Shown: one piece after another, positions 2,911 to 51,320 of the stretch
How positions within the stretch are numbered: the first letter of the stretch is position 1
How the letters are laid out: the number at the start of each line of letters is the position of its first letter
Origin: Anolis carolinensis
Lineage: Eukaryota
Reading direction: 5' to 3'
Length of the DNA: 64,000 nucleotides
Assembly (NCBI RefSeq): GCF_035594765.1
Contig: NC_085846.1
Location: forward strand, 19,455,190-19,519,189
Made by a program: the position numbers and the translations under genes
Notes under the pieces: generated by a model
Databases searched by the model: none
What the model was told of the DNA's origin: nothing
What the model saw: only the letters and a program-made list of their open reading frames with translations

Positions 2911-3045
2911 CAGTGGTTCTCAACCTGTGGGTCCCTAGATGTTTTGGCCTTCAGCTCCCAGAAATCCTAACAGCTGGTAAACTGGATGGGATTTCTCGGT
3001 GTTGAAGGCCAAAAGCATCTGGGGACCCCAGGTTGAAAACCACTG
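2911..3045. mobile_element. Palindromic hAT MITE (CAGTGGTTCTCAACC family)
   Basis: TIRs plus perfect 8-bp TSD ATCTAACT. Confidence 0.85.
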
Positions 3046-17131: not shown

Positions 17132-19102
17132 AATAATAAATAATAATAATAAAACTTTATTTATACCCCGCCACCATCTCCCCAATGGGGACTCGGGGCG
17201 GCTTACATGGGGCCACGCCCAAAACAATACAATGTAAACAGCATATAAAAGAACAGCACAACACAATACAATAAACAATACAGTAAATAATATCCATTAC
17301 AAAATAAAACAAGGAGACAATAAAAACAAGGGCAGACCACATGAACATTAAGTTAAAACTCGGGGTGAGAAAGACATAAAAATAAAAACCACAGCGAACA
17401 GGGTCATAAGGGAGTGGGGTATTCTGGAGGATAGATATTAGGGGGAGTAACGGAAAAGAAATATAAAATGGTTACTCTCCAAAAGCGCAGCGAAAGAGCC
17501 ATGTTTTCAAGTCTTTCTTGAAGGCTGCTAGTGTGGGGGCTTGCCTAATCTCCGCGGGCAGAGAATTCCACAATCGGGGGGCCACAGAAGAAAAGGCCCT
17601 CTCCCTTGTTCCCACAAGGCGGGTCTGGGATATCGGGAGTGGGGACAGGAGAGCTTCCCCTGATGAGCGAAGGGATCGTTGTCAGGTCCCTGGCTGCTGG
17701 GCACCAATAACCTTACACAGAGGCCAGTCTCTATCTAATATCTTTATTAAAGAAATATATAAAATCAATAAAAACAAGTGAAGAATATAGTTCAGAAGCA
17801 GACCTTTCAAATGAGGTCAAATATAGTCCAAAAATGTATTGTCCAATAAATGATATTAGAGTTCAAAGTTTTAATCCACTTGACCGAAACACACACTTTG
17901 CCAAGCAATAGTGTGGGGAAATAACAGAGTCTTAGAGTCCAATGAAGCTTGACAACAAGGCTGGAAATAAACTTGATTCTTGACTAGGTCCGTGACTGGA
18001 GACAAGGCAAAACATGAAGCATGAAGCAGGGTCCGTGGTAAAACCGCGAGGCAGGGCAAGGCTTGAAGCTTGATCCGGGAAGCAAGGAACTGGGGTATGA
18101 AGTCCACACACGATCTGTCTCCTGAAGGTGATCAATTGACTCCGCAAAGAATCCCTCGCGCCAAACACCTATATTGGGTCTCGTTTTCCCGCCAACAGAA
18201 CTCTTTCCCTAGAGAACGAGAAGCGAAACCCAACTCTGTCCAGATATGTGACTCCTTAGAATTTCCCAAGGGAAGCAGGCCTAATCAGCTTGATGTTTGG
18301 CAGCTATGCGTAAACTCCTCCGTTGGGCTTCTCTGACTCCCCTTTCTCTAGAATAAGATTCCTTCCTGGGAAACGGAGGGGAGTTCTGCCCAAGGCCTGT
18401 TTGGCTGAATTCTTGAGGGCAAACATCAACATCCTGCAGGTGAAGGGACTCCGGCTCTTGCTGAACCGGCGAAAACCTCATGTTTTCCTCTTCGTCTGCC
18501 ACAATAGTACTAGGAACAGGACTACAAGGCCCATGAGTCATCACAATCGTGTAGGCTTGTGGTAGGAGATACGGTCACGAAGGTAGGTGGGTCCCAAACC
18601 GTTCAGGGCTTTATATGTGATGGTATACACCTTGAATTGGGACCGGAAAGTAAAAGGCAGCCAGTGGAGCTCCTTGAACAGGGGAGTAGATCTCTCCCTG
18701 TAACTCGCCCCCGTAATTAACCTGGCAGCCGAGCGCTGGACCAATTGTAGTTTCCGGGCCGTCTTCAAGGGAAGCCCCACGTAGAGCGCATTACAGTAGT
18801 CCAGTCTAGAGGTAACTAAGGCATGCACCACCGTGGTCAAGTCAGACTTCACGAGGTATGGTCGCAGTTGGTGCACAAGCTTGAGTTGTGCGAAAGCCCT
18901 CCCGGCCACCGCCGACACCTGCGCCTCAAGCGTCAACGCTGAGTCCAGGAGGACCCCTAAAGTGTGGACCTGTGACTTCAGGGGGAGTGCAACCCCGTCC
19001 AGCACAGGTTGCCACCCAATACCCCGATCCGACGCGCGACTGACCAGGAGGGCCTCTGTCTTGTCGGGATTGATCCTCAGCTTGTTCCTCCTCATCCAGT
19101 CC
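17132..19102 (-). mobile_element. 5'-truncated L2 LINE inserted into the Sauria SINE
   Basis: ORF2 C-terminus WMRRNKLRINPDKTE..VTSRLDYCNALY..LHWLP, continuing after the LTR as RAFSSVAPRLWNSLP to a stop at ~17472; (TTA)n tail. Confidence 0.92.
17680..18545 (-). mobile_element. Solo LTR (866 bp) inserted in the L2 ORF
   Basis: TGT..ACA termini, 5-bp TSD ATCGT (17675-79 and 18546-50), minus-strand AATAAA ~17745; its removal re-joins the L2 frame. Confidence 0.88.
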
Positions 19103-22100
19103 GCTGGCCACATGACCTTGGAGGTGTCTACGGACAACGTCGGCTCTTCGGCTTAGAAATGGAGATGAGCACCAACCCCCAGAGTCAGACACGATTGCAT
19201 TTAACGTCAGGGGAAAACCTTTACCTTACCTTACCAGGATCTAAGCCTTAGTCAGCCTGGTCAGTGGTGAGATATGTTGGGAGTAATAATTCATCCTCAT
19301 TTGGAATATGAAATTTCCCCTACTGAGCTATAGTACATTGATCAGGTTTATAGTATCATGTAAGCATAGACTGAAGCATCTTTTCTTCTTTTTCAGACAT
19401 GAATGATTGTTATAAATGCACAGATAAAAAGTTTTCAAATAAAAAACATGATTTATGTATTCCCAAATATATAAATGTCTTGTCCTTTGAAGAACCATTG
19501 GGACTCTGTTTAGCATGTTTTGCTATTTTCTTTACTTTGATTACAGGTTGTGTGCTAGGGATTTTTCTGAAGCATCACAATACTCCTATTGTCATAGCCC
19601 ACAACCGGGATCTTTCATACAGTCTCCTCATCTCACTGCTACTCTGCTTTCTTTGCACATTGTTATTCATTGGCAGGCCTCAACAGGTGACTTGTCTGTT
19701 TCGTCAAACTGCTTTTGGCGTTGTCTTCTCAGTGGCTGTTTCTTGTGTCCTGGCAAAAACTATCACAGTAGTACTAGCTTTTATGGCTGTAAAGCCAGGC
19801 TCTCGGATGAAGAAGTGGGTGGGGAAGAGATTTCCCAAAGTGATAGTTTTTGTAGGTTCCATTATCCAAGCAGTCATTTGTACTGTGTGGATGGCAAGAT
19901 TTCCTCCATTCCCAGATGTTGACACACATTCTATGACCAAAGAAATCATACTGGAATGCAATGAGGGATCTATACTTTTGTTTTATTGTGTTTTAGGCTA
20001 CCTTGGCTTCTTGTCCACCATTTGTTTCACTGTAGCTTTCCTTGCTAGAAAGCTACCTGACCGTTTCAATGAAGCCAAGTTTATAACTTTCAGCATGTTT
20101 ATTTTTTTGTAGTGTTTGGGTATTCTTTGTTCCAATCCATCTGAGTGTAAAAGGAAAATATATGGTAGCTATGGAGGTCTTTTCCCTGTTAGCCTCAAGC
20201 TCAGGACTTCTGGGTTGCATTTTTTCTCCTAAATGTTATATTATTTTGTTGAGGCCAGAGGTGAACAACAGGAAACAACTAATAAATAGAAAATGTTGAT
20301 TAATATTTGTATCTGTGCCTTGCAATATAACTTCTTCATAAAAGTAGCCATGAATAATTTCAACAATTTTTTCCTGTTGTGAGAACCACTATGTGATTCT
20401 TAAAAGCTATTTGCAATGTTGCCCGGTATAAACATTGCATAAAATCAGAAATAAAGCACATCATCATAATTGTTGTTGTTGTTGTTATTAAAAGAAGCTC
20501 AATAAGAGATGAAATTTCCCCCCTAATTTTGTTTCTGTAATGTTCAGTTCTTTCTTCGGTGAATACTGTCTCATATACTGTTGGACAAGTTGTTGTTGTT
20601 GTTGCTGCTGCGTGTCTTCAGGTTGGTTCTGACTTGTAGAGAGGGACCCCTAAGGCGACTAAAGGTTTTTGTTCTGTTTTTTGAGACAGAGGCAGGATCT
20701 ACACTGCCCTATATACCAGGATCTGATCCCAGATTATCTGTTTTGGATTGGATTATACGAATCTACACTGCCAGATAATCTGGGATAAACTGATAATCTG
20801 GGATCAAATCCTGGGACATAGGTGAGTGCATCCAACTTGAGGAAGTGTGACTTGCCCAAGCTCAGCCATTTTCTTTCTTTTGTGCTAACACATTTTCATA
20901 GCAAATAGTGAGTTTTCATTCTTAATTAAATTCAAAAAGAATTATGTAATACATTAAACAATATTTATTCTTCCTGGCTGGGGTAAGGTTAGTTTACCTT
21001 GTTTATCTAGAGCCAATGCTACTTATCATAACCAATATTAGTTCCAACATCATTCAAATTACACTATCCCACACACATTTTGATGCCTTAGATGTTAGCC
21101 CTGTTTCTGGGTATATTTGCCCTGCTGATTCTAATAATGGCTCCAGTTTTTCCATATCACTTCTCGTTTTTGAGATAGAGAAAATAATGCCATTATTCAT
21201 CTGTTCACTCATAGAAAATCATGATAACCGTATCTAAGAAACTAGACCTGATGCAGTCTATCCAATGCAATTTTCTGAATCAGTGCCCCAAATAACCCCA
21301 GAAACAAACCAAGAAACTAAGAATTTGTTTTGGTTGGGCTATATTATCCTTGATTATTTCATCTTTTCAATCATCTCCTAGTTCAAGTATATTCCTAACA
21401 CTTCTGACTGACGAGGTTGGATCTAAACGATATCATAACTGCAATAATTATAAGAGAGGAGAGAAGTTAATAGCTTCAGAAGACCTTTGGTTTTGTAAGA
21501 TCTTCTCTTACAAATGGCTTTTCTACACTTGCAAAAACCCTGGATGCACCCTAAATGGAAGGCTGCTGTCCCCACAATACACAGCAATTTCTGGTGGGTA
21601 TCTTGGAGACTTTGGCTTTAAACCAACTATATTGGAAATCCTGTTTAGCCCAACTCACTGTTAAGACTGGACACTAGCACCATCAGCCTTTTCCTGTGCT
21701 CATCAGCACAAGGAAAGGGATGGATCATGACCAAGTCCCTGCCACCACCCCTAGCCATGCACAAGCTCCATCCATATTCCTGGCCATCGTGGTTACTTCA
21801 GCTGACATTAGAATTGTGTACCCACACAACCTCAAAGAAGGACTGGGGAGCATAATCTGATATCATTGTCAGAATTGAACCCTGGAGATCACTTTTTTAG
21901 TTTCAGCATAAAGATATCATTTGAAGCATTTGGGTAGATTTTTCTGGACCTAGACATTTCTGTATCCGGAGAGTGACTAATTCATTTGGTGAAGGGTATG
22001 TCTTTGTATCTGCCTCTTTAGTTCAACAGTCATGAAAAGTTGAGAAGTAGATTTCCCTGGGAGTTGAGCTCCCACTTTAAGTCACCACCTTCAGGCCTCT

Positions 22101-24034: not shown

Positions 24035-24276
24035 ATGTCAGTGGAGGAAAGATTTCTAAGAATGATGATATTAATGATTTTGATACCTGGCATACTTCCT
24101 CACTTAAAGAACAAGGCACAGAAAATCCAGTGCATGATCCATTATCCTTACCCTCCACTTCACAAGTATCTTCACCCAGGAAAGCTTCTTCTTGGTTTTG
24201 TTGCATCACAGGCTATAATTGTTTCCAATGAAATCACCTTCACAGAAAGACCAAAATCAATGATTGAAGAGAATAT
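24035..24276 (+). CDS. V2R C exon 1
   Basis: [25 protein letters not shown]; AT|GTAAGA. Confidence 0.85.
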
Positions 24277-27200
24277 GTAAGACGTTAATTTTCTGTTTTT
24301 CCATCCTTTTTAGCAACTGTATGTGTGTGTGTATGTGTGTTTATGCATGTGTATTCTTCTGAAAAAATGGTGCATCATCTATTCCTGCATCTTCATGAAA
24401 TGTGAGAGATTTAATGCTAACGAAAAAAGATCCATTAAATGAGTGGAACCTATGATAATTTTTGATTTACCAATTTAATGTTAGTCTAATTGGAACTAAA
24501 ATTGGTTACAGGTTGCTTTATTTCTCAAGACCTGGCTATTTCACAATGCACATGACTGGATATTATGTGCAGTAACATATATGTCTATCTCTTTTGTTTC
24601 CCTTCTACAATTGATGGTATCTCTGGAATCTTCCAGCTATTATAATGTGGGCTGCAAAAAACATATATTTTAGTATCACCAGGAATCAAATTTCTGCTAA
24701 ACTTCAACCATATTCTTGTGGCAGTAATTTATCACTAGTTATAATTTATAAGTTATAAACTATGTATAATTTTTAAAAAGCAATGGTAAATCAATGATAA
24801 TTTTAAGCCAGAGAAAATATAATGAACAATGTTGTCAAAGTGTAATAAAAACACACATTGTAAGATCCCAAAATAACTTTTCTTTTGATTTCACACCTAG
24901 TGCTCACTGCCATACTTTCCAACATTAATATTTCCACTCCTTCTCCAGCATTATTAGATTGACGTCTTCCTCCCAGTTAGATTTTATTATCAGGATCTGA
25001 CAGTTAACTATTTCTACTTTTTCTTGGTTTTGCCATCTCAATAATCAAATCTGGCTATGGCAGGCTCAGAAAAGTTGTTAAAAGGAATAAAATTAAAGGG
25101 ATTGCTAACAATGGGCGTATTTAATTTTTTGAAAGTTGTCCTGCTGCTTTTTACATCATTCTACTTTCCTTTCTTTCACACCAATTTATATATTCGATTG
25201 CTCAGAGTAGCATCTAGCTATTAAAGTAGGATTGGAATTTGATCTAGTGTAAAGAGGTCGTAGGAAATGATAGTCACTCATTCTAACTTAGTAAGTGATA
25301 AAGGGTATGGGCCATTCCATGCTTACTCTCATTTCACTTCTCTTCTAGTATGGTGCCAAAGAATTACCAACATATTCTGGCTTTGGAATTTGCAATACAG
25401 GAGATAAATGAAAACCTGCAGATCCTACCCAATGTCACTCTGGGCTTCCACATTTATGACAGCTATTTCAACATAAAGTGGGCCTTCTATAGTGCAATCA
25501 TGTTTATATCCCTGTCTGGAATATGTGTTCCCAATTACAAATGTAAATTAGATAACAGCTTAGTAGCAGTAATTGGGGGACTGGACTCCCGAACCTCACT
25601 TCACGTGGCAACTATCTTGGATATCTACAAGATCCCTCAGGTAGGATGTATGTGTAAACAGTGAAAATATGCCTTTGTCATGTCTCTTTCCTTTGCCCCC
25701 CAAATGTGATTTTGAACTGTTGTATGCATGTTGAGTACATAAGCAGATATGACCTTCTCATTGAGTGAGATGTATGTATATTGAATTTAATTTTCAGTTT
25801 TTACATGATAGCAAGGGTGGATGGGATAGATATTGCTTGCTGACTCTCTTTTTTCAACACATCTCAGAAAGGAGAGCATATGTGTTGTATCTCAGAATAC
25901 ATTCACATGAACATTGCTCTCAAGTAATACATTTCTGGACAATGCATCCAGGTCATAAGGCACTCCTGAATATACTGAAAAGCTGTCAGCATATCCAGGT
26001 CACAAGGCACTCCTGGAAAAAAGTATAGGAAAAAAATACAAGTAAACTTTAATTTAATATTTCAGATTCAAAATAATTTGTATCTGAAAGGGAGAAATAA
26101 GGTTCAGTGGGAAATAATGCAGAGAACTCTGCAACCTGATAATGGACCACTATATTAAGACCTATATAATCCAATGAAATATAAAGAGATGGCAAGAAAA
26201 AAAAGGACTATGGCAATCTCAATCGAGAACTCAAGACTACAGTAGGTATGAATAGATCTGGATCTCATGTTTTCTATAAGGACCTTTAGTTGGACCTAAT
26301 TAAAAATAGACAGTCTCTTAATGAAGAAGGAGGCGAGAGAAGTACAAGCCCTGTGTAAAAAGAAAGCTGGGTTATAAACCAAATAAAGAATAAAATACAT
26401 GAAACCATTCGCATCAAGATTTCAAATGATATACTCAAAATGAGTATATAATACTATTCATTATATCATTGAAATTGAATGCGGGATTAGTTCTCTGTAA
26501 ATGAAGGTAGTATAATATTGCTTTATAATGTACTACAAAATCAATACTGAATTTCTATGTCACAAAATGTTGTATTTAACTATGTGTGTACTAAAACTAT
26601 TGTAATTTAATAATCCTCTTTCCCTGTTTGTTTTCATATTTCTCTGTAGCTCATATATGGCTCTGCTCCAGTGATGGATGAGAAAACCTCTGGGATTCCC
26701 TTCTATCAGATGGTACCTGAGGAAACTGCTCAGTATGCAGGGATTCTCTCTTTACTTCTCCATTTCAGATGGACATGGATTGGAGTCCTGACTACAGATG
26801 ATGACAACGGAGAAAGATTTGTGAAAAATGTACTCCCAGTATTTTATGAGAATGGTGTCTGTTTTGATTTCGTAGAAAAAGCAACCAGATTGCATGTTGT
26901 GACTGTTTTTGATCATGTTATGCTCCAAGGGGCAAGAATACATGATAAAATTATGTCTAGCAAAGCCAATGCAATGCTGGTTTATGGAGAATCAGATTCC
27001 ATGGTGTCATTGAGATGGCTGGCATATCTTTCCGAAATAGAAGAAATTGAACTTACCTTTAAACCAAAAGCCAAAGTGTGGATAATAACAGCCCAGATGG
27101 AGCTCATGTCAACAGCTTATCAAAGAACTTGGGACGCAAATATGTTCCATGGTGCAATTAGTGTCACAATTCATTCTAACAATATACCAGCATTTCAGCA

Positions 27201-30200
27201 ATTTATTCAAAACAGAAAATTTCACGATGATAAAGAAAATGGTTACATCAGGGACTTCTGGGAGCATGCCTTCGGCTGTACATTTCCAAGTGAAGTTATG
27301 CATGAAAGGGATGAAGATATTTGCACAGGGAAAGAGAAGGTGGACAGTCTTCCAGGATCTTTTTTTGAAATGAGTATGACTGGCCACAGTTACAGCATCT
27401 ATAATGCTGTCTATGCAGTGGCCTATGCATTAAATGATATGTTTTCCTCTGGATTCAAGCTCAAGGCAAAGATGGGCAGAGGGAGATTGAAATCTCTTAA
27501 AGAATTTTGGCAGGTAATGCACAGATAACATACGGTGTTAATGCAACGTACTTTAAAAACAAATGTAATTTTTGCTCATATACAGGAAACCCTCAAGTTA
27601 CATACAAGATAACTTCTGTAGGTTTATTCTTAAGCTGAATTTGTACTTAAGTCAGGACAAGTACCGTATATACTCGAGTATAAGCTGACCCGAATATAAG
27701 CCGAGGCACCTAATTTTACCACAAAAAACTGGGAAAACATTGACTCCAGTATAAGCTGAGGGTGGTAAATTTCAGAAATAAAAATAGCTACCAATAAAAT
27801 TACATTAATTGAGGCATCGGTAGGTTAAATGTTTTTGAATATTTATATAAAGCTCAAATTTAAGATAAGACTTTCCAACTCTGATCAAATCGCTATTCTC
27901 ATCTTCTTCAATGTAAATGTGCTTATGTATCCTTTTAATAATAATAGAGTAAAATAATAATGTAATAATAATAATAAATACAGGAAAATAATACATGTAA
28001 TAATAAATAGNNNNNNNNNNNNNNNNNNNNNNNNNNNNNNNNNNNNNNNNNNNNNNNNNNNNNNNNNNNNNNNNNNNNNNNNNNNNNNNNNNNNNNNNNN
28101 NNNNNNNNNNNNNNNNNNNNNNNNNNNNNNNNNNNNNNNNNGTAGCAACAATAATAGAGAAAAATAATAAATGTAATAATACCAATAATAATAGAGAAAA
28201 ATAATAAATGTACCATATATTCTTGAGTATAAGTTGACCCAAGCCAACCAGGACCCTCACCCGAGTATAAGCCGAGGGGGGCTTTTTCAGTCTTAAAAAG
28301 AGGGCTGAAAAACTAGGCTTATACTCGAGTATATACAGTACATTTTGAAGTTTAACTCCAATCAAATATATATACACACACACACACACAAATTTTGGTC
28401 AGCATAAGGAAAGATTAACACTACTGTCTGTGCCCCTGTTCAGAAGATTTCACCTAATTTTCTGTCCTTGTGATCAATCATTGGATTCTGAAAAAAATGG
28501 TTTGTTGTGGAAACAAGGATAGGTGATAAAGCTTCAGTGGAGACTCCTTTCCCTCATGATAACTCTTCTTGGAGTGCATTTCCCTTCCTAGGGGTAGATT
28601 CCTCTCACTTCCTGTTGTCTTGCCTCCATCTTTAACTATACGCCGCATTCAAGCATTCATGTAACTGATTTTGTTATGTGGCTTCAAGTGAACTCTGATT
28701 TACAGCAAGGTTTTAGCAAGATTTATTTTACCCACAGAAGTTTATCATTGCCTTCCTCTGAGGTGGAAAGTTATAACTTGCACAAAATAATCCAGGATGT
28801 TTATGTCTGTGAGTAGAAATTCGAACCCTGGTCTTCCAGAATCCTAACACAACACTCAAAGCCTATGCTACACTGGCTCTCAATTTCTGGTGGAAATAAA
28901 AAGATAGCAGAAACATTTCTCAGTTTGTACAGTAAACCTCCCATTTCATTTGTTCTAATAAATGCTTCCTGGGTCCCATGTCAAGTGAAATTGTAGCATT
29001 AAAATACAGTAAAGTCTCGCTTATCCAAATTTCGCTTATCTAACATTCTATATTATCCAATGCAGTCTGCCTTTTAGTAGTCAATGTTTTTATAGTCAAT
29101 GTTTTCAATAGATTGCGATGTTTTGGTGCTAAATTCGTGAATACAGTAATTACTACATAACGTTACCGTGTATTGAACTGCTTTTTCTATTGATTTGTTG
29201 TATAACATGATGTTTTGGTGCTTAATTTTTAAAATTATAACGTAACTTGACATTTAACAGACTTTTCCTTAATCCCTCCTTATTATCCAACATTTTTGCT
29301 TATCCAACGTTCTGCCAGTCGTTTATGTTGGATAAGCGAGACTCTACTGTAAAGTAGTTCAATATATAATATAATATGATATAAATCCATCTGTGCGCAT
29401 TTTTAAAATTCGGTTTATATATATATAGGACAAGAAAGTTAGTTTAACATTAACTGAAAGTATATACTCAAGAGCTGGAAGAAGATACTTTTTGATATTT
29501 CGAGCACAGATATAAAGGATGACTTGTGCATGTCCAGTTGAACATTTTTGTCCATTGATATCAAATCAATTTTTTTTTCTAAATTCTCGCTGTTCCCTTT
29601 TTCTATCTAGCTCCATCAGTTTCTGAAGATTGTCTCATTTAACAACAGTGTTGGGGACAAAATTTTCTTTGACCACAATGGGCAATTAATAGCTGTGTTT
29701 GATGTTATCAACTGGATCATTTATTCCAACCAGTCGTTTCATAGGGTGAAAATTGGGAAGATGGACCCTGAAGCTCCTCTAGATCAAGTCTTCACTATAA
29801 ATAACACTGCAATAATTTGGCACAACTGGTTTAACCAGGTAGTTTATTATTTAAAATAATCTGGGGACTGTTTCCATGTTGATATAGCAATGACAGTCTT
29901 GACACGTCATGAGCCATTTGAATCTGATATAAAATATTGATTATTGTTAGAAACTAGACCATATGTAATTTGATTACAGATATGAAGCACCTTCCCTTTT
30001 TCTTTGCTGTTAGTTATAATATCTGAAAACATAGAAGACTGCATTTTGAATAGATTTTGAAAACGCATTTTATTTAGTCTTGAAAAATAGGCTTGAAATT
30101 CTTGATTATTCAACCTGCTCCATTCAGGCTAAATCTGATATTAATTAAAAAATATATGGCATCTGTTATATTCAGGGCCGGCCGGAGATATTTTTTGATG

Positions 30201-33200
30201 TAAAGCGGGGGCGCTGAAAAGCGCCCCCGCCACCGGCGCCCTGGCCCCGCCCAGCGTGCCCTGGCCCCGCCTCCCACGCTGCGTGGGAGGCGGGGCCAGG
30301 GCGAATAGTGAGGGGGCGGGGCCAGAGTTGGCCCCGCCCCCCGTGCCCTGGCCCCGCCTCCCACGCAGCGTGGGAGGCGGGGCCAGGGCACGCTGGGCGG
30401 GGGGGCGGCGTCAGAGCTGGCCCCGCCTCCCACGTTACCCCCGCTCGCCCGTCTGGCCTTGTGTAGCAGGCCAGACGGGCGAGCGGGGGTAACGTGGGAG
30501 GCGGGGCCAGCTCTGACGCCGCTCCCCCCCCCCCCCGCCCAGCGTGCCTTGGCCCTGCCTCCCACGCAACGTGGGAGGCGGGGCCAGGGCACGCTGGGCG
30601 GGGGGGGCGGCGTCAGAGCTGGCCCCGCCTCCCACGTTACCCCCGCTCGCCCGTCTGGCCTTGTGTAGCAGGCCAGACGGGCGAGCGGGGGTAACGTGGG
30701 AGGCGGGGCCAGCTCTGACGCCGCTCCCCCCCCCCCGCCCAGCGTGCCTTGGCCCTGCCTCCCACGCAACGTGGGAGGCGGGGCCAGGGCACGCTGGGCG
30801 GGGGGGCGGCGTCAGAGCTGGCCCCGCCTCCCACGTTACCCCCGCTCGCCCGTCTGGCCTTGTGTAGCAGGCCAGACGGGCGAGCGGGGGTAACGTGGGA
30901 GGCGGGGCCAGCTCTGACGCCGCTCCCCCCCCCCCGCCCAGCGTGCCTTGGCCCTGCCTCCCACGCAACGTGGGAGGCGGGGCCAGGGCACGCTGGGCGG
31001 GGGGGGCGGCGTCAGAGCTGGCCCCGCCTCCCACGTTACCCCCGCTCGCCCGTCTGGCCTTGTGTAGCAGGCCAGACGGGCGAGCGGGGGTAACGTGGGA
31101 GGCGGGGCCAGCTCTGACGCCGCTCCCCCCCCCCGCCCAGCGTGCCTTGGCCCTGCCTCCCACGCAACGTGGGAGGCGGGGCCAGGGCACGCTGGGCGGG
31201 GGGGGCGGCGTCAGAGCTGGCCCCGCCTCCCACGTTACCCCCGCTCGCCCGTCTGGCCTTGTGTAGCAGGCCAGACGGGCGAGCGGGGGTAACGTGGGAG
31301 GCGGGGCCAGCTCTGACGCCGCTCCCCCCCCCCCGCCCAGCGTGCCTTGGCCCTGCCCCACGCAACGTGGGAGGCGGGGCCAGGGCACGCTGGGCGGGGG
31401 GGGCGGCGTCAGAGCTGGCCCCGCCTCCCACGTTACCCCCGCTCGCCCGTCTGGCCTTTTCTAGCAGGCCAGACGGGCCAGGGCGCACTGGGCGGGAGGC
31501 GGGGCACCGTCAGGGCGGTGCCCCGCCTCCCGCCCAGCCTGACGGCGCCCCCCCGGGCCTGCGCCCGAGGCGGCGGCGTCAGCTGCCGCATGAGTGGGGC
31601 CGGCCCTGGTTATATTTAAAGTTCTTATTCAATACATATAGAGGTACGGTCGCCACATCCCAGCTTCACAAATCTCATATCCCAATTTGCATGTTATGCA
31701 GTTTTGTTTGTGTGTGTTTTTGCACTGTTAAAAGTGAAGGACGATTTCTTTTCAGAAAGACTACGTATGCTCCCCAAATGTGTGAGCCACAATGTTGAAT
31801 TTATTTCTTCCAGTGAACCTCAATAAGTGCAACCCACTTCCCTTCCCTGATTCCTCCTTCCCCTCAGCAACAGCATGCATAGTTTGATACTGTCATATTA
31901 TCAATGCATTTTTAATTTTTTTGACTAGGTTCAACCCCTTTCTCAGTGTAATGACAATTGCTATCCTGGCTATAGCAAGAAAATAAAAGAGGGAGAACCA
32001 TTCTGCTGCTATGATTGTATGCCATGTCCAGAGGGGAAGATTTCCAGTGAAAAGGGTAAGAAGAAAGAATGTTAAGATTAACCTAGCTACTAGTGCTATT
32101 TACATATTAAAGAACATTTTATTATTGGTTCAGAGACCCTGAAATGTAAACTAAAATTGACTAAAAGCCACTTTTTGCCATTTTAGGGTTGTTGAGATGA
32201 CTTTGTTTCCCTCCATCCCTCTTGCTAAAGATAGTCACTTTCCATTCAGAAGGAAAAGCCATGTCCTGATTTGATTCCTTCTTCATAATCTGTTGGGGAC
32301 ATGAGAATTTGTTTAAAGATTGTTTTAAGTATGTCTACAAACTCTAGAGGAGAATATGTATGACTCTCTGAGCTAATCTGTTGACTACAATAATAAAAAT
32401 ATAATAATAAACCTTTATTTATATTCTTCCCTATCTCACCAGAAGTACTCAGGGCAATTCCAACATACAACGGCAAATATGAAATGCCTCCATAGAACAA
32501 ACAAATACCAACATAAAATCCCAGAAAAAAAACCCCACATATGAAAACACTAAAACCTAACATCAAATTAAACCTAATATCAATAAATTAAACCTGACAT
32601 CCATAAATTAAACCAAATATATAGTTCCCACCAACGTACTTGAGATGGGGGTGGGACTGAGAGTAGGGCCTCCTCCGCTGACCGCATTGCCCAGGCTGGT
32701 TTATAAGAGAAGATGCGATCAATTAAATAGCCTGGACCTGAGTCAGGGCTTTAAGGTAATGACCAACACTTTGTATTTATCCTGGAAACAGACCAGCAGC
32801 CAGAGGAGCTGGCGCAACATAGGAGTGGATCTCTCCCTGTATGGAGCTCCTGTTAGTAATCTGATCTCTGGACCAGTTGGCTTACTTTTTACCACTACCA
32901 CTATTACTATTATACGTAGGTTATTAATATGAAAAGAGACTACATTCAAGAATCAGATGAAAACTTGGAATAGCAGCTGTGAAGGAACTAGAAAAGATCC
33001 TGAGATATAATGATATATCATTAAATGCTAATGTTAGGACTGCCCATGTCATCGTCTGTCTCTATCTATGGTACCGGTAGTAAAAGGTGAAAGTGAAGAA
33101 AAGTGATAGGAAGAACATCAATACATTTGAGGTGTGCTAGAGAAGAGTTCTATGCATATCCTGGACTGCCAAAAAGATAAATAAATGGATCTTAGAGCAA

Positions 33201-35449
33201 ATCAAATCCAAACTCTCCCGAGACCCAAGATGGCTAAACAGAAATTGCTGTACTTTGGCTAGATCAAGAAAAGACACCATTTCCTAGAAGTCATAGCCCC
33301 AACCTAAGCAGGAATATTGATTATGGGATGACTTGAAGGTCTCTCATTCATAGGGTTCACATAAGTCAAAGTTGACTTGATGGCAGTTAGCAATACAATT
33401 CCAAAGAAAACGTGTTTAGCACCAGGATAGGAAAAATAGAACACTTTCATAACTTTTTAAAACTAATCATAATAATGGGGTTGTTGTATGTCTTTTGGGC
33501 TGTGTGGCCATGTTCCAGAAGCATTCTCTCCTGACGTTTCGCCCACATCTATGGCAGGCATCCTCAGAGGTTGTGAGGTACCTCACAACCTCTGAGGATG
33601 CCTGCCATAGATGTGGGCGAAACGTCAGGAGAGAATGCTTCTGGAACATGGCCACACAGCCCGAAAGACATACAACAACCCTGTGATCCCGGCCATGAAA
33701 GCCTTCGACAACACATAATCATAATAATACTGTTGGATGAATATTTAATGCAAAACTGAACCTTTTTGCAGTATTCCTTAAAAAATATTCTTGGCAAACA
33801 TTTTTCCAAAATAATCACAATAATTTGACTCATATAGACTGGGTATAAAAAATCCATTTTTGGAACTATGCGGGAGGGTAATTTTTAAATAACTAAGTTT
33901 ATTACCTTTCCAATGAAGTAAATATGGGAAAGATGATAAACTGAACCTAGCCATTTGAAAACTACCCTCCCCAAATGACCATTTAGCCTAGGATCTAAAC
34001 ATAACAAGGTTTTATTACTAATCTTTGTTTATGTGCAACATGAATGCTTCTTTAAAGGTTCACAGTGATGAGATACTAGAAAAATATAGTGGAGCGTTAT
34101 CATTTCAGCTGGTTTCCACTTGAAAGAGATATTTATAATTGTGCAGTTCAACAGTTCTTGAAATGATTTCAAAGGCTATTTTATGACAATGAGTGGTCAA
34201 CAGTAGACAATACCTGTTGACAAAATACTTTGTTAACCAACAAAGGTATAGCCCTTTTAGTGGACCTTGGATTTTGTTTTAACTTAATGACAAATAATTA
34301 TCATTATTATCTTTTGTCAAATTAAAAGGAGGGAAAAGTGTAGGGAAGGAACTGATGCCGTGTTGAGTGAGATGTATTGCTGTCTAGGACTAGCTCTGTT
34401 ATATCTCCCCAGTGAAACAGAGCCGGAATAAATGAAGAGAACAGAAAATGAAGAAGGTACAGTAGGACTGATGTTTCAGTCTTACTCAACAATAACAGAT
34501 ATGTGAGAGATTAATACCACAATTACTTTTTTCTATTTCAGACATGGATGAGTGCTATACATGCAGAGATGAATACTACCCCAATAAAAAACATGACCTG
34601 TGTATTCCAAGAGATATAAGCTATCTGTCTTATGAAGAACCATTGGGGATTGCTTTAGCCTTCCTTGCTCTTCTTTTATCATTCATAACATGTTTCATAC
34701 TAGTAATATTTCTGAAATATCAAAACACTCCCATAATCATAGCAAATAATCGAAACCTTACCTATATTCTCCTCATCGCCCTCCTGTTCTGTTTCCTTTG
34801 TGCCTTGCTGTTCATTGGCCAGCCTCAGAAGGTGACATGTCTTCTCCAACAAACTGCTTTTGGCATCATCTTCTCAGTGGCAGTGTCTTGTGTGTTGGCA
34901 AAAACAATAACAGTACTTCTTGCTTTCATGGCCACCAAGCCAGGATCCAAAATGAGGAAATGGGTGGGGAAAACATTGACCTACTGCATTGTTATTTCTT
35001 GTCCCCTTATTCAAACAGGCATCTGTGTTGTATGGTTAGCAACCTTTCCCCCATTTCCCAGTCCTAACACTAATTCGGTCAGAGAAGAAATCATACTGGA
35101 ATGTAACAATAATTCTGCAACTATGTTTTATTGTGTTCTAGCATATATGGGATTCCTGGCCGCTGCCAGTTTTGTTGTGGCTTTCCTTAGTAGAGAGTTG
35201 CCAGATACTTTCAATGAAGCCAGGTTTATCTCATTCAGCATGTTGGTGTTTTGCAGTGTTTGGATATCCTTCATTCCAAGCTACTTGAGCACTAAAGGAA
35301 AATCCATGGTGGCTGTGGAAATCTTTTCGATCTTAATCTCTAGTACTGGGCTACTAGGTTGTATCACTTTTCCAAAATGCTATATTATTTTGTTCAGGCC
35401 TAACCTGAACAACCGAGAAACATTAATGAAGAAAAAGTTGAGAGATTAA
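24035..35449 (+). CDS. V2R gene C, intact, ~886 aa (877 aa if start is ATG 24062); join(24035..24276,25349..25640,26650..27513,29611..29838,31929..32055,34542..35449)
   Basis: Exons of 242/292/864/228/127/908 nt sum to 2661 nt in frame; all GT-AG; full VFT, CRD and 7TM motifs. Confidence 0.94.
25349..25640 (+). CDS. V2R C exon 2
   Basis: [25 protein letters not shown]|GT; 292 nt. Confidence 0.93.
26650..27513 (+). CDS. V2R C exon 3
   Basis: LIYGSAP..EFWQ|GTAATG. Confidence 0.94.
27664..28338. mobile_element. Tc1/pogo-type MITE spanning the assembly gap
   Basis: TIR CCGTATATACTCGAGTATAAG / CTTATACTCGAGTATATACAG; TA TSD. Confidence 0.85.
28011..28141. other. Assembly gap (131 N) in an AT-rich minisatellite
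   Basis: N run. Confidence 1.
29007..29349. mobile_element. Tc1/mariner MITE
   Basis: TA|CAGTAAAGTCTCGCTTATCCAA..TTGGATAAGCGAGACTCTACTG|TA; same family at 53344-53649. Confidence 0.88.
29611..29838 (+). CDS. V2R C exon 4
   Basis: [19 protein letters not shown]|GT; 228 nt. Confidence 0.92.
30173..31608. mobile_element. Non-autonomous hAT element with internal GC-rich palindromic tandem array
   Basis: Perfect 11-bp TIR CAGGGCCGGCC and perfect 8-bp TSD GTTATATT (30165-72 and 31609-16). Confidence 0.92.
31929..32055 (+). CDS. V2R C exon 5
   Basis: [25 protein letters not shown]; 127 nt. Confidence 0.93.
32400..32870 (-). mobile_element. Degraded L2 3' fragment
   Basis: Minus frame [22 protein letters not shown] resembles the L2 at 18.7 kb; L2-type 3' end near 32410. 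Confidence 0.7.
32950..33395 (+). mobile_element. Degraded RTE/BovB-like LINE 3' fragment
   Basis: Relic peptides [23 protein letters not shown] and LLYFG, plus an RTE-type 3' end. Confidence 0.65.
33530..33570 (-). ncRNA. Mirror-image minimal hammerhead ribozyme motif
   Basis: Exact reverse complement of 33589-33629. Confidence 0.72.
33589..33629 (+). ncRNA. Minimal type I hammerhead ribozyme motif (PLE-associated)
   Basis: CCT-CTGAGGA-T-GCCTGC-catagat-GTGGGC-GAAA-CG-TC^AGG. Confidence 0.75.
34542..35449 (+). CDS. V2R C exon 6 (7TM)
   Basis: TTTCAG|AC ATG; 7TM ending at TAA. Confidence 0.96.
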
Positions 35450-37620: not shown

Positions 37621-38487
37621 TGCATTAGTGTGCAAATAACCTTTTTGTCGTATGAAGAAGCTTTAGGGCTTGGTTTAAGTATTAGTGCTCTTTCTTTCCT
37701 TTTGGTCACAACACTGGTGCTTGAAACTTTATAAAGCACCAGAATACTCCCATTGTTAAAGCCAACAACCTGACTCTTTCGTACACTCTTTTCATCAGTC
37801 TTTTGCCCTGCTTTCTTTGTGCTTTGCTATTCCTCAGATAACCCCCCAAAATAACATGTCTCATTTGTAATATTATCTTTGCAATTGTTTTCTCAATGAC
37901 CACTTCATTGGTGTTAGCCAAAAGTGTTACAGTGGTTTTAGCTTTCATGGTTACGATGGCATCATCAAGGATGGAAAGATGGATGAATAAAGGAGTGGTT
38001 GCATTAATTGTTTATTTTCCTGTACTCTATTCAAGTAATCATTTGTGTTACATTGTCATCAGTCCCGTCCCCCCATTTCTTTGACATGCATTCGGAACCT
38101 GAAGAAACCATATTAACATGTAATATAAGCTCAGTGGCAACGGCTTACTGTGGCTTTGCTTACATGGTCTTCCAAGCCATTGTCAGTTTTATTGTAGCTT
38201 TTCTAGCCAGGAACTTACCCAGCAGTCTCAATGAAGCTAAATTTATCACAATCAGTATTCTCAACTTTTGCACTGTATGGGCATCCTTTATTCCAACCTA
38301 TTTGAGCACCAAGGGAAAACAGGTGGTGGCCATGGAGATCCTTGCTATCTTAGTTTCCAGTGCTGGGTTGCTAAGTTTCATATTCCCACCCCCCCCCCCC
38401 AAATGGTTCATTATAGTTCTGAGGCCTGAAATGAACAAGAAGGAGCTGATTTTAAAGAAAACTAAAGTGACACTCTCCATAGAATGA
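37621..38487 (+). pseudogene. Orphan V2R exon 6 (7TM) pseudogene D
   Basis: [21 protein letters not shown] and LPSSLNEAKFIT are recognisable. Frameshift ~37730, in-frame TAA 37839-37841, second frameshift ~38010-38030. No exons 1-5 seen in 35450-37620. Confidence 0.9.
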
Positions 38488-50535: not shown

Positions 50536-51091
50536 CATAGAATCATAGAATCATAGAATCATAGAATCATAGAATAGTAGAGTTGGAAGAGACCACATGG
50601 GCCATCCAGTCCAACCCCCTGCTAAGAAGCAGGAAATCGCATTCAAAGCACCCCCGACAGATGGCCATCCAGCCTCTGCTTAAAAGCTTAAAAGCCTCCA
50701 AAGAAGGAGCCTCCACCACGGCCCCGGGGAGAGAGTTCCACTGTCGAACAGCTCTCACAGTGAGGAAGTTCTTCCTGATGTTCAAGTGGAATCTCCTTTC
50801 CTGTAGTTTGAAGCCATTGTTCCGTGTCCTAGTCTGCAGGGCAGCAGAAAACAAGCTTGCTCCCTCCTCCCTTTGACTTCCCTTCACGTATTTGTACATG
50901 GCTATCATGTCTCCTCTCAGCCTTCTCTTCTGCAGGCTAAACATGCCCAGCTCTTTAAGCCGCTCCTCATAGGGCTTGTTCTCCAGACCCTTGATCATTT
51001 TAGTCGCTCTCCTCTGGACGCTTTCCAGCTTGTCAACATCTCCCTTCAACTGTGGTGCCCAAAATTGGACACAGTATTCCAGGTGTGGTCT
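50536..51091 (-). mobile_element. 5'-truncated CR1 LINE
   Basis: ORF2 C-terminus [37 protein letters not shown]; octamer tail (ATTCTATG)x5; 8-bp duplication at 50678-50693 shifts the frame. Confidence 0.95.
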
Positions 51092-51320
51092 CAAAACATC
51101 ACATGTGTTGATCAATGACATTCTCTCTGGCATTCTCCAGCCCATCAAACGCGGCTGGGCCCAACTGCACTCCCTATGGATCATCACATATGGTGGCCAA
51201 CTGCATCCCTGATAGAAAAGAGTCGAAGCCCTGCCTTCCAGGTCAATCAACAGTAGGTAGTTTCACAGACCATCCAGAAGTATGAGATAAACATGTGAGC
51301 CAGCTACCTTGACAGTAGAC

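Follow-up and report, generated by a model that had tools for sequence, protein, structure and literature searches.

We asked how a chain of GC-rich palindromes came to lie within a receptor gene of the lizard Anolis carolinensis, how such a chain changes, and whether it does anything there. The window analysed is a stretch of 64,000 nucleotides (contig NC_085846.1, positions 19,455,190 to 19,519,189 of the forward strand) holding a tandem cluster of class C G protein-coupled receptor genes, which we take to be vomeronasal type-2 receptor (V2R) genes from their pair of domains and from exon sizes typical of such genes. The chain forms the interior of an element of 1,436 bp (positions 30173-31608 of the window) in an intron of one of them. 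We found this element to belong to a non-autonomous family of hAT transposons, as a copy that is young and polymorphic. It was likely moved by a resident transposase, and its chain likely rearranges by template switching and slippage at hairpins; we consider this combined reading probable.

The insertion, its family and a candidate transposase

Both ends of the element carry a perfect 11-bp terminal inverted repeat (TIR), CAGGGCCGGCC, and are flanked by perfect copies of an 8-bp target site duplication (TSD), confirming the boundaries proposed in a preliminary description of this DNA. The element thus shows both hAT hallmarks, an 8-bp TSD and short TIRs starting YARNG (PMC3014272), the TIRs here being of the form CAGGG... 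Its parts are as follows (window positions).

30165-30172, forward: left TSD copy, GTTATATT, found as a single copy in a contig of run X1
30173-30183, forward: left TIR, 11 bp
30173-30235, forward: fixed left end, corresponding to the autonomous element's 3' end and used again in chimeras with the autonomous 5' end
30241-30367: palindromic module of GC boxes, its two B axes (about 30280 and 30367) spaced by 87 bp
30367-31363: five head-to-tail units of ~200 bp, each an arm and its reverse complement
near 30464, 30666, 30865, 31065 and 31264: short A axes of the five units
near 30568, 30768, 30967, 31166 and 31364: B axes of the five units
31364-31470: last forward arm, with the terminal variant of the axis (loop TTTTCTAGC), also present in the zero-unit 439-bp copy L017
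31471-31608, reverse: fixed right end
31537-31587: right-end segment homologous to autonomous 5' subterminal sequence, measured on L017
31598-31608, reverse: right TIR, 11 bp
31609-31616, forward: right TSD copy

Tandem Repeats Finder assigned the element a period of 199 with 5.8 copies and 98% matches. The axis-A motif lies at 30455, 30657, 30856, 31056, 31255 and 31453, reproducing the periods described earlier (202, 199, 200, 199 and 198), except that the sixth axis is not of the same type, having the other loop and belonging to the fixed right end. An 18-mer had been described as bounding each arm in about four copies per unit; it occurs in 20 exact copies (8 forward and 12 reverse), but it does not delimit the arm on the axis-A side and the fourth copy of each unit is imperfect. 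The last (fifth) unit also has a 2-nt deletion. Variation in the length of the poly-C/G runs may partly be consensus error. The GC content is 0.78 and the observed/expected CpG ratio 0.71, versus 0.22 across the remaining window, and folding of two units gave two long hairpins, with z = -35 relative to 100 dinucleotide shuffles. An Rfam scan of 29800-32000 matched no family, and open reading frames across the array were rejected as genes, being low-complexity read-throughs of GC-rich repeats.

To find further copies, we searched the genome with the element ends, as the preliminary description had proposed, obtaining 407 exact matches of a 28-nt left end and 316 of a 34-nt right end (reversed controls, 0). 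We inspected 80 copies, 20 chosen by identity to the window copy and 60 that head the list for contig C1. Both ends lay in the fetched stretch for 69 of them, with a perfect TSD in 68 and one mismatch in the other, and the TSDs of these complete copies each differ from one another. Of the 11 copies at first without a right end, 4 were completed later, all with perfect TSDs, and the remaining 7, truncated or interrupted, were left out of structure counts. Element lengths range from 322 to 2,167 bp. End diagnostics divided 70 complete elements (window included) into 24 young, 20 middle and 26 old copies, with private substitutions at 0.07%, 0.11% and 0.27% respectively and none in the window copy; 22 of the 24 young copies have no or one difference over the 212 end bases used in the tree. 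With fixed ends and between 0 and 7 units in 41 young copies, the family has the form of a MITE (miniature inverted-repeat transposable element) with an internal tandem array. We also noted a 2,167-bp copy (L069) with the right end, TIR included, three times in tandem, and a diverged 518-bp relative (L043:2898-3415) whose ends are similar and whose GC-box palindromes have decayed, possibly close to the array ancestor.

We then checked the left junction of the insertion in four sequencing runs, of which one was informative. A contig of run X1 holds a single TSD copy and joins 30172 straight to 31617 onward, which is the empty allele that the preliminary description had proposed to look for; the insertion is therefore polymorphic. 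A contig of run X4 reaches 24 bases into the element, below our 31-letter bridging rule, and suggests a filled allele, while contigs of runs X8 and X15 end before the junction. Together with the TIRs and TSD, the dispersed copies and the lack of private substitutions, this supports the earlier proposal of a young hAT insertion.

As a possible source of transposase, a search for DUF4371 returned 104 matches, many within a 759-aa open frame. The underlying autonomous elements are 6.7-6.9 kb long with CAGGGCCGG TIRs and 8-bp TSDs (both ends confirmed in 9 copies) and encode hAT dimerisation and DUF4371 domains (PF05699 and PF14291); copies of this intact family are L081:112-6984, L082-L088, L090 and L102-L118. 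The nearest database protein, 98% identical and 869 aa long, is labelled 'zinc finger MYM-type protein 1-like [Anolis carolinensis]' and has the DDE-type hAT catalytic motifs. DUF4371 and the TIR resemblance, both Tip100 traits, make the transposase a candidate member of the Tip100 group. A TIR core of 9 bp is common to the autonomous and window families, and the autonomous 5' end matches the right end of the window family at 83% over 52 bp, as computed (E 7.6e-8) with L017, a copy identical to the window copy over its terminal 150 bases. The autonomous-type hairpin has 1,318 genome matches, and 12 of 12 sampled loci (L121-L132) were chimeric non-autonomous elements of 476-1,969 bp, in which the autonomous 5' end and its hairpin array are joined to the window-family left end, so that the ends are interchangeable in practice; some of these chimeras have 390-bp higher-order periods. 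The genome thus holds an autonomous partner with shared ends and a hAT transposase and, judged from these sequences, an intact hAT transposase of the same genome likely mobilises the window family.

The autonomous copies carry a palindrome chain of their own, just inside the 5' TIR and ahead of the transposase gene, which is unrelated to the GC-box chain (1 shared 12-mer). We fetched 20 stretches for autonomous 5' ends, leaving out 5 without a TIR plus anchor. Across 17 copies, the array measures 397-1,405 bp in 16 different lengths, with perfect arms of up to 198 bp. In six copies whose 2,277 coding bases are identical, the array is 412, 466, 636, 803, 976 and 1,405 bp long.

Array history and proposed mechanism

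Array lengths and unit numbers were taken from assembled sequence. Among the 41 young copies, a sample biased towards those with arrays (the first 20 by window identity, 20 later ones largely for the short axis), unit number was 0 in 1 copy, 1 in 5, 2 in 6, 3 in 8, 4 in 4, 5 in 10, 6 in 4 and 7 in 3; we excluded L039, which combines a young left end with an older right end and 280-bp units. The zero-unit L017 and the 322-bp copies have transposed with perfect TSDs, and the array is therefore not required for transposition.

Middle and old copies have a period of ~280 bp, with an extra ~80-bp hairpin at axis A between 9-bp direct repeats. In the first sample, the short axis was found in 0 of 46 middle or old copies, and 6 of 24 young copies had one 280-bp first unit followed by 200-bp units; exact short-axis junctions number 200 genome-wide. 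The simplest reading is that the 200-bp unit derives from the 280-bp unit by a deletion between the direct repeats, followed by expansion of the shortened unit. Axis A would then be what was left after loss of the central hairpin and not an original fold-back axis, and the "nucleosome-length" period, previously singled out, would be a by-product of that loss. In many copies, that of the window among them, the last unit is marked by the 2-nt deletion, which in some has also spread to inner units. Since 10 of the 41 young copies have five units and the marker deletion is common to several loci, the five-unit array most likely came with the element, and the idea that it was built at the V2R locus is not borne out.

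To examine how units change, we compared 99 central hairpins, finding the loop GATT in 60, its reverse complement AATC in 34 and another loop in 5, with the asymmetry next to the loop flipping together with it. Arms of the same hairpin differ by 1.03 mismatches in 32 nt versus 4.81 when arms are shuffled (minimum 3.71 in 1,000), ancestry not being controlled in this comparison. Middle copies usually have an inverted unit at the end, and young copies are nearly all direct tandems, one of them with two flipped loops. The hairpin flips and matched two-arm changes in older copies are, on this comparison, likely a signature of template switching. At C1:292.24 Mb, we identified a tandem duplication of the array, the right end and more than 3 kb of flank (L133:6237-10000; 99.8% over 3.3 kb), which enters the array at a short microhomology, opens with an inverted unit and has more units in the second copy. 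As it lacks a left TIR, rearrangement also occurs in place, without transposition. The preliminary description had suggested cluster instability; an array-linked local rearrangement was seen this once, at another locus.

We propose the following mechanism, in which fold-back precedes tandem amplification, an order already suggested in the preliminary description and supported here. Polymerase U-turns at short inverted repeats would first have converted one arm X to X-X'-X (an inverted triplication of small size) and would go on inverting loops and entire units. Loss of ~80 bp, by slippage between the 9-bp direct repeats on either side of the central hairpin, would have given the 200-bp unit. 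Whole units would be gained and lost by direct slippage, unequal exchange or gap repair, which would explain why the window units share one orientation. A five-unit source copy would then have been cut and pasted into the V2R intron, where the insert would be methylated and near neutral.

Alternatives and the host gene

Array change might instead be coupled to transposition, each replicative jump altering the array through repair of the excision gap from the sister chromatid or through hAT machinery nicking or opening hairpins. The differing array lengths in the six autonomous copies of identical coding sequence fit this account, as does the occurrence of two unrelated arrays within one transposon lineage. 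Other hAT copies in the flanks have only 0-1 palindrome axes (11 of 11 rows of HT2, HT1/3/SPIN, hobo and hAT-N6-like elements, plus L100), and hAT transposases form hairpin intermediates. However, many young copies share the five-unit length and the marker pattern, so that jumps often copy faithfully; the rearrangement at C1:292.24 Mb took place without a TIR or new TSD, and hAT-N6-like elements with near-identical TIRs lack an array. We therefore regard coupling as rather unlikely.

The second alternative is that the palindromic GC-box array is selected, either as an aid to transposition (through bending, end pairing, chromatin opening or a promoter for the transposase) or as a mobile CpG-island-like cassette for host genes such as the V2R gene. 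The window copy has 24 GC-box matches and 12 motifs of G-quadruplex type per strand, the autonomous array separates the 5' TIR from the transposase gene, and at least one unit is kept in 40 of 41 young copies. The composition given above, over 1,436 bp, exceeds the thresholds for a CpG island (GC above 55% and a CpG ratio above 0.65 over 500 bp). Against this, private transitions occur at 39 of 13,289 CpG sites and at 25 of 36,994 G/C sites outside CpG, an odds ratio of 4.35 (p 1e-8), showing that CpGs of the family are not protected from methylation-driven decay and that the family is likely germline-methylated. The intact CpGs of the window copy are, from this pattern, likely a matter of youth and not of island status, and of the CpG-island-like cassette proposed earlier the composition stands while the reading is weakened. 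The array sequence is also wholly different between the two families and spreads 3.5-fold in length among identical transposases, and copies with zero units or 322 bp have jumped.

The host gene encodes Pfam ANF_receptor and 7tm_3 domains, and its exons 2-6 (292, 864, 228, 127 and 908 bp) join as one open frame, bearing out the earlier placement of the element in intron 4 of an intact receptor gene. Within this intron (29839-31928; 646 bp without the element), the element begins 334 bp past the donor and ends 320 bp ahead of the acceptor. A look-up of the flanking sequence listed no RNA data set containing it. An insertion that is polymorphic and more than 300 bp from both splice sites argues against selection, the sequence analyses made here yielded no evidence of an effect on the V2R gene, and the insertion is likely an ordinary polymorphic transposon insertion, near neutral. 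Selection of the array is in our view distinctly improbable. The gene and its surroundings are laid out as follows.

24035-35449, forward: host gene, with a candidate exon 1 from 24035 (end not fixed)
25349-25640, 26650-27513 and 34542-35449, forward: exons 2, 3 and 6
29611-29838, forward: exon 4, 228 bp
31929-32055, forward: exon 5, 127 bp
19375-20112 and 38008-38487: V2R last-exon frames that look cut off or partial, suggesting pseudogenes among intact paralogues
18541-19152 and 50567-51262: fragments of long interspersed nuclear elements
2911-3045: 135-bp element with an 8-bp TSD, matching hAT-N1_AC in size and TIR

Sequence made of palindromes and homopolymers is generally prone to errors. 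Lengths at the 41 loci, however, step cleanly by 200 bp, diagnostic variants keep the same unit positions from locus to locus, and each subfamily has its own unit types. It is therefore very improbable that errors of assembly or sequencing turned a short palindromic element into one with this array length and poly-C/G variation.

Several points weigh against the reading put forward here as a whole. The history was reconstructed by comparing copies, and no transposition or mutation event was directly observed. Two copies with middle-type ends (L151 and L152) carry one short axis each, so that the short unit is not strictly confined to young ends, and the order of events is made less distinct by recombination between subfamilies. 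As the tree of the ends has no root and little resolution, the direction from 280 to 200 bp is drawn from divergence and mixed copies. Arm covariation is overstated, because the shuffle leaves shared ancestry in, and the distribution of unit numbers is not that of a random sample, the copies having been chosen by window identity or short axis. CpG decay tells of germline history and not of the state of vomeronasal tissue.

A broader idea, speculative and in our judgement doubtful, is that fold-back arrays are bred by a hAT lineage currently active in a vertebrate: the cycle of transposition itself would drive repeated template switching at hairpins just inside the ends, so that any sequence there would become a self-similar, hypervariable palindrome chain, as would have happened twice independently here, one of the two in the autonomous element. 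If true, small inverted triplication would have a natural reporter in the germline, in many hundreds of copies, and rearrangement a dispersed set of entry points.

Comparison with known systems

The list of Anolis carolinensis hAT elements by Novick et al. (PMC3014272) includes five autonomous families, none with the TIR CAGGGCCGGCC, and the orphans hAT-N6_AC, hAT-N7_AC and hAT-N8_AC (810, 288 and 329 bp; TIR CAGAGSCGGYCC), for which a missed autonomous hAT family was suspected; the words palindrome and minisatellite are absent from its main text. The orphans resemble the window family in species, 8-bp TSD, near-identical short TIR, youth and lack of coding capacity, but differ at TIR base 4 (G in the window family) and in length (each of one listed size, as opposed to 322-2,167 bp). 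By TIR and listed length, the window family belongs to none of them. Separate copies with the hAT-N6 TIR and size (805 and 832 bp; L040:3439-4243 and L075:1514-2345) are AT-rich and have no palindrome axis. Their ends are those of a 5.3-kb DUF4371-bearing element (L100:2770-8100, longest open frame 472 aa), which is, by sequence, a candidate for the autonomous partner that Novick et al. could not find. The intact, recently active transposase family described here under its 'ZMYM1-like' label is missing from the 2010 list. With the Tip (Tip100) group it shares an 8-bp TSD, short TIRs and the pairing of autonomous elements with MITE-like derivatives (PMC3942097), a group whose membership is there defined by transposase phylogeny.

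In the literature searched, mostly open-access and with Repbase, Dfam and Repbase Reports outside its scope, neither the window family nor any autonomous hAT with hypervariable arrays of nested palindromes turned up. MITEs with tandem arrays in their interior have precedents; the same literature gave no lineage bearing two unrelated hypervariable fold-back arrays, including in autonomous copies. Among MITEs whose internal array varies, the closest are DTC84 of Donax trunculus (PMC3879986) and, in the review PMC12628747, Xstir/Xmix and miDNA4 of Xenopus and Angel of zebrafish; the coral CMITE (PMC2872659) is less relevant. As described in these sources, they share the cassette with fixed ends, a variable number of 150-280-bp units and position-specific variants, and stem-loop or fold-back replication models have been proposed for them (PMC3879986, PMC12628747). 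Their units are ordinary repeats with a palindrome of at most 12 nt, or the whole MITE is one inverted repeat. In the window family, by contrast, every unit is a palindrome throughout, with axes nested inside it; units flip; and a second, unrelated and hypervariable array sits in the autonomous partner.

The unit geometry resembles that of small inverted triplications / ODIRA; the former are described (PMC13334657) as duplication-inversion-duplication structures with ~150-bp arms, which arise at short inverted repeats, by either a double template switch or fold-back of a flap, and gain or lose units by slippage over hairpins. Those are rare somatic or mutant-yeast events, whereas the lizard array is iterated, inherited and spread by a transposon, and a common mechanism would hold by analogy. 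The genome offers hundreds of dated, inherited copies of such hairpin chains, in which inversion, mirror correction, deletion and expansion run far faster than point mutation, and long-read population data would make germline rates of template switching, and their link to transposition, measurable.

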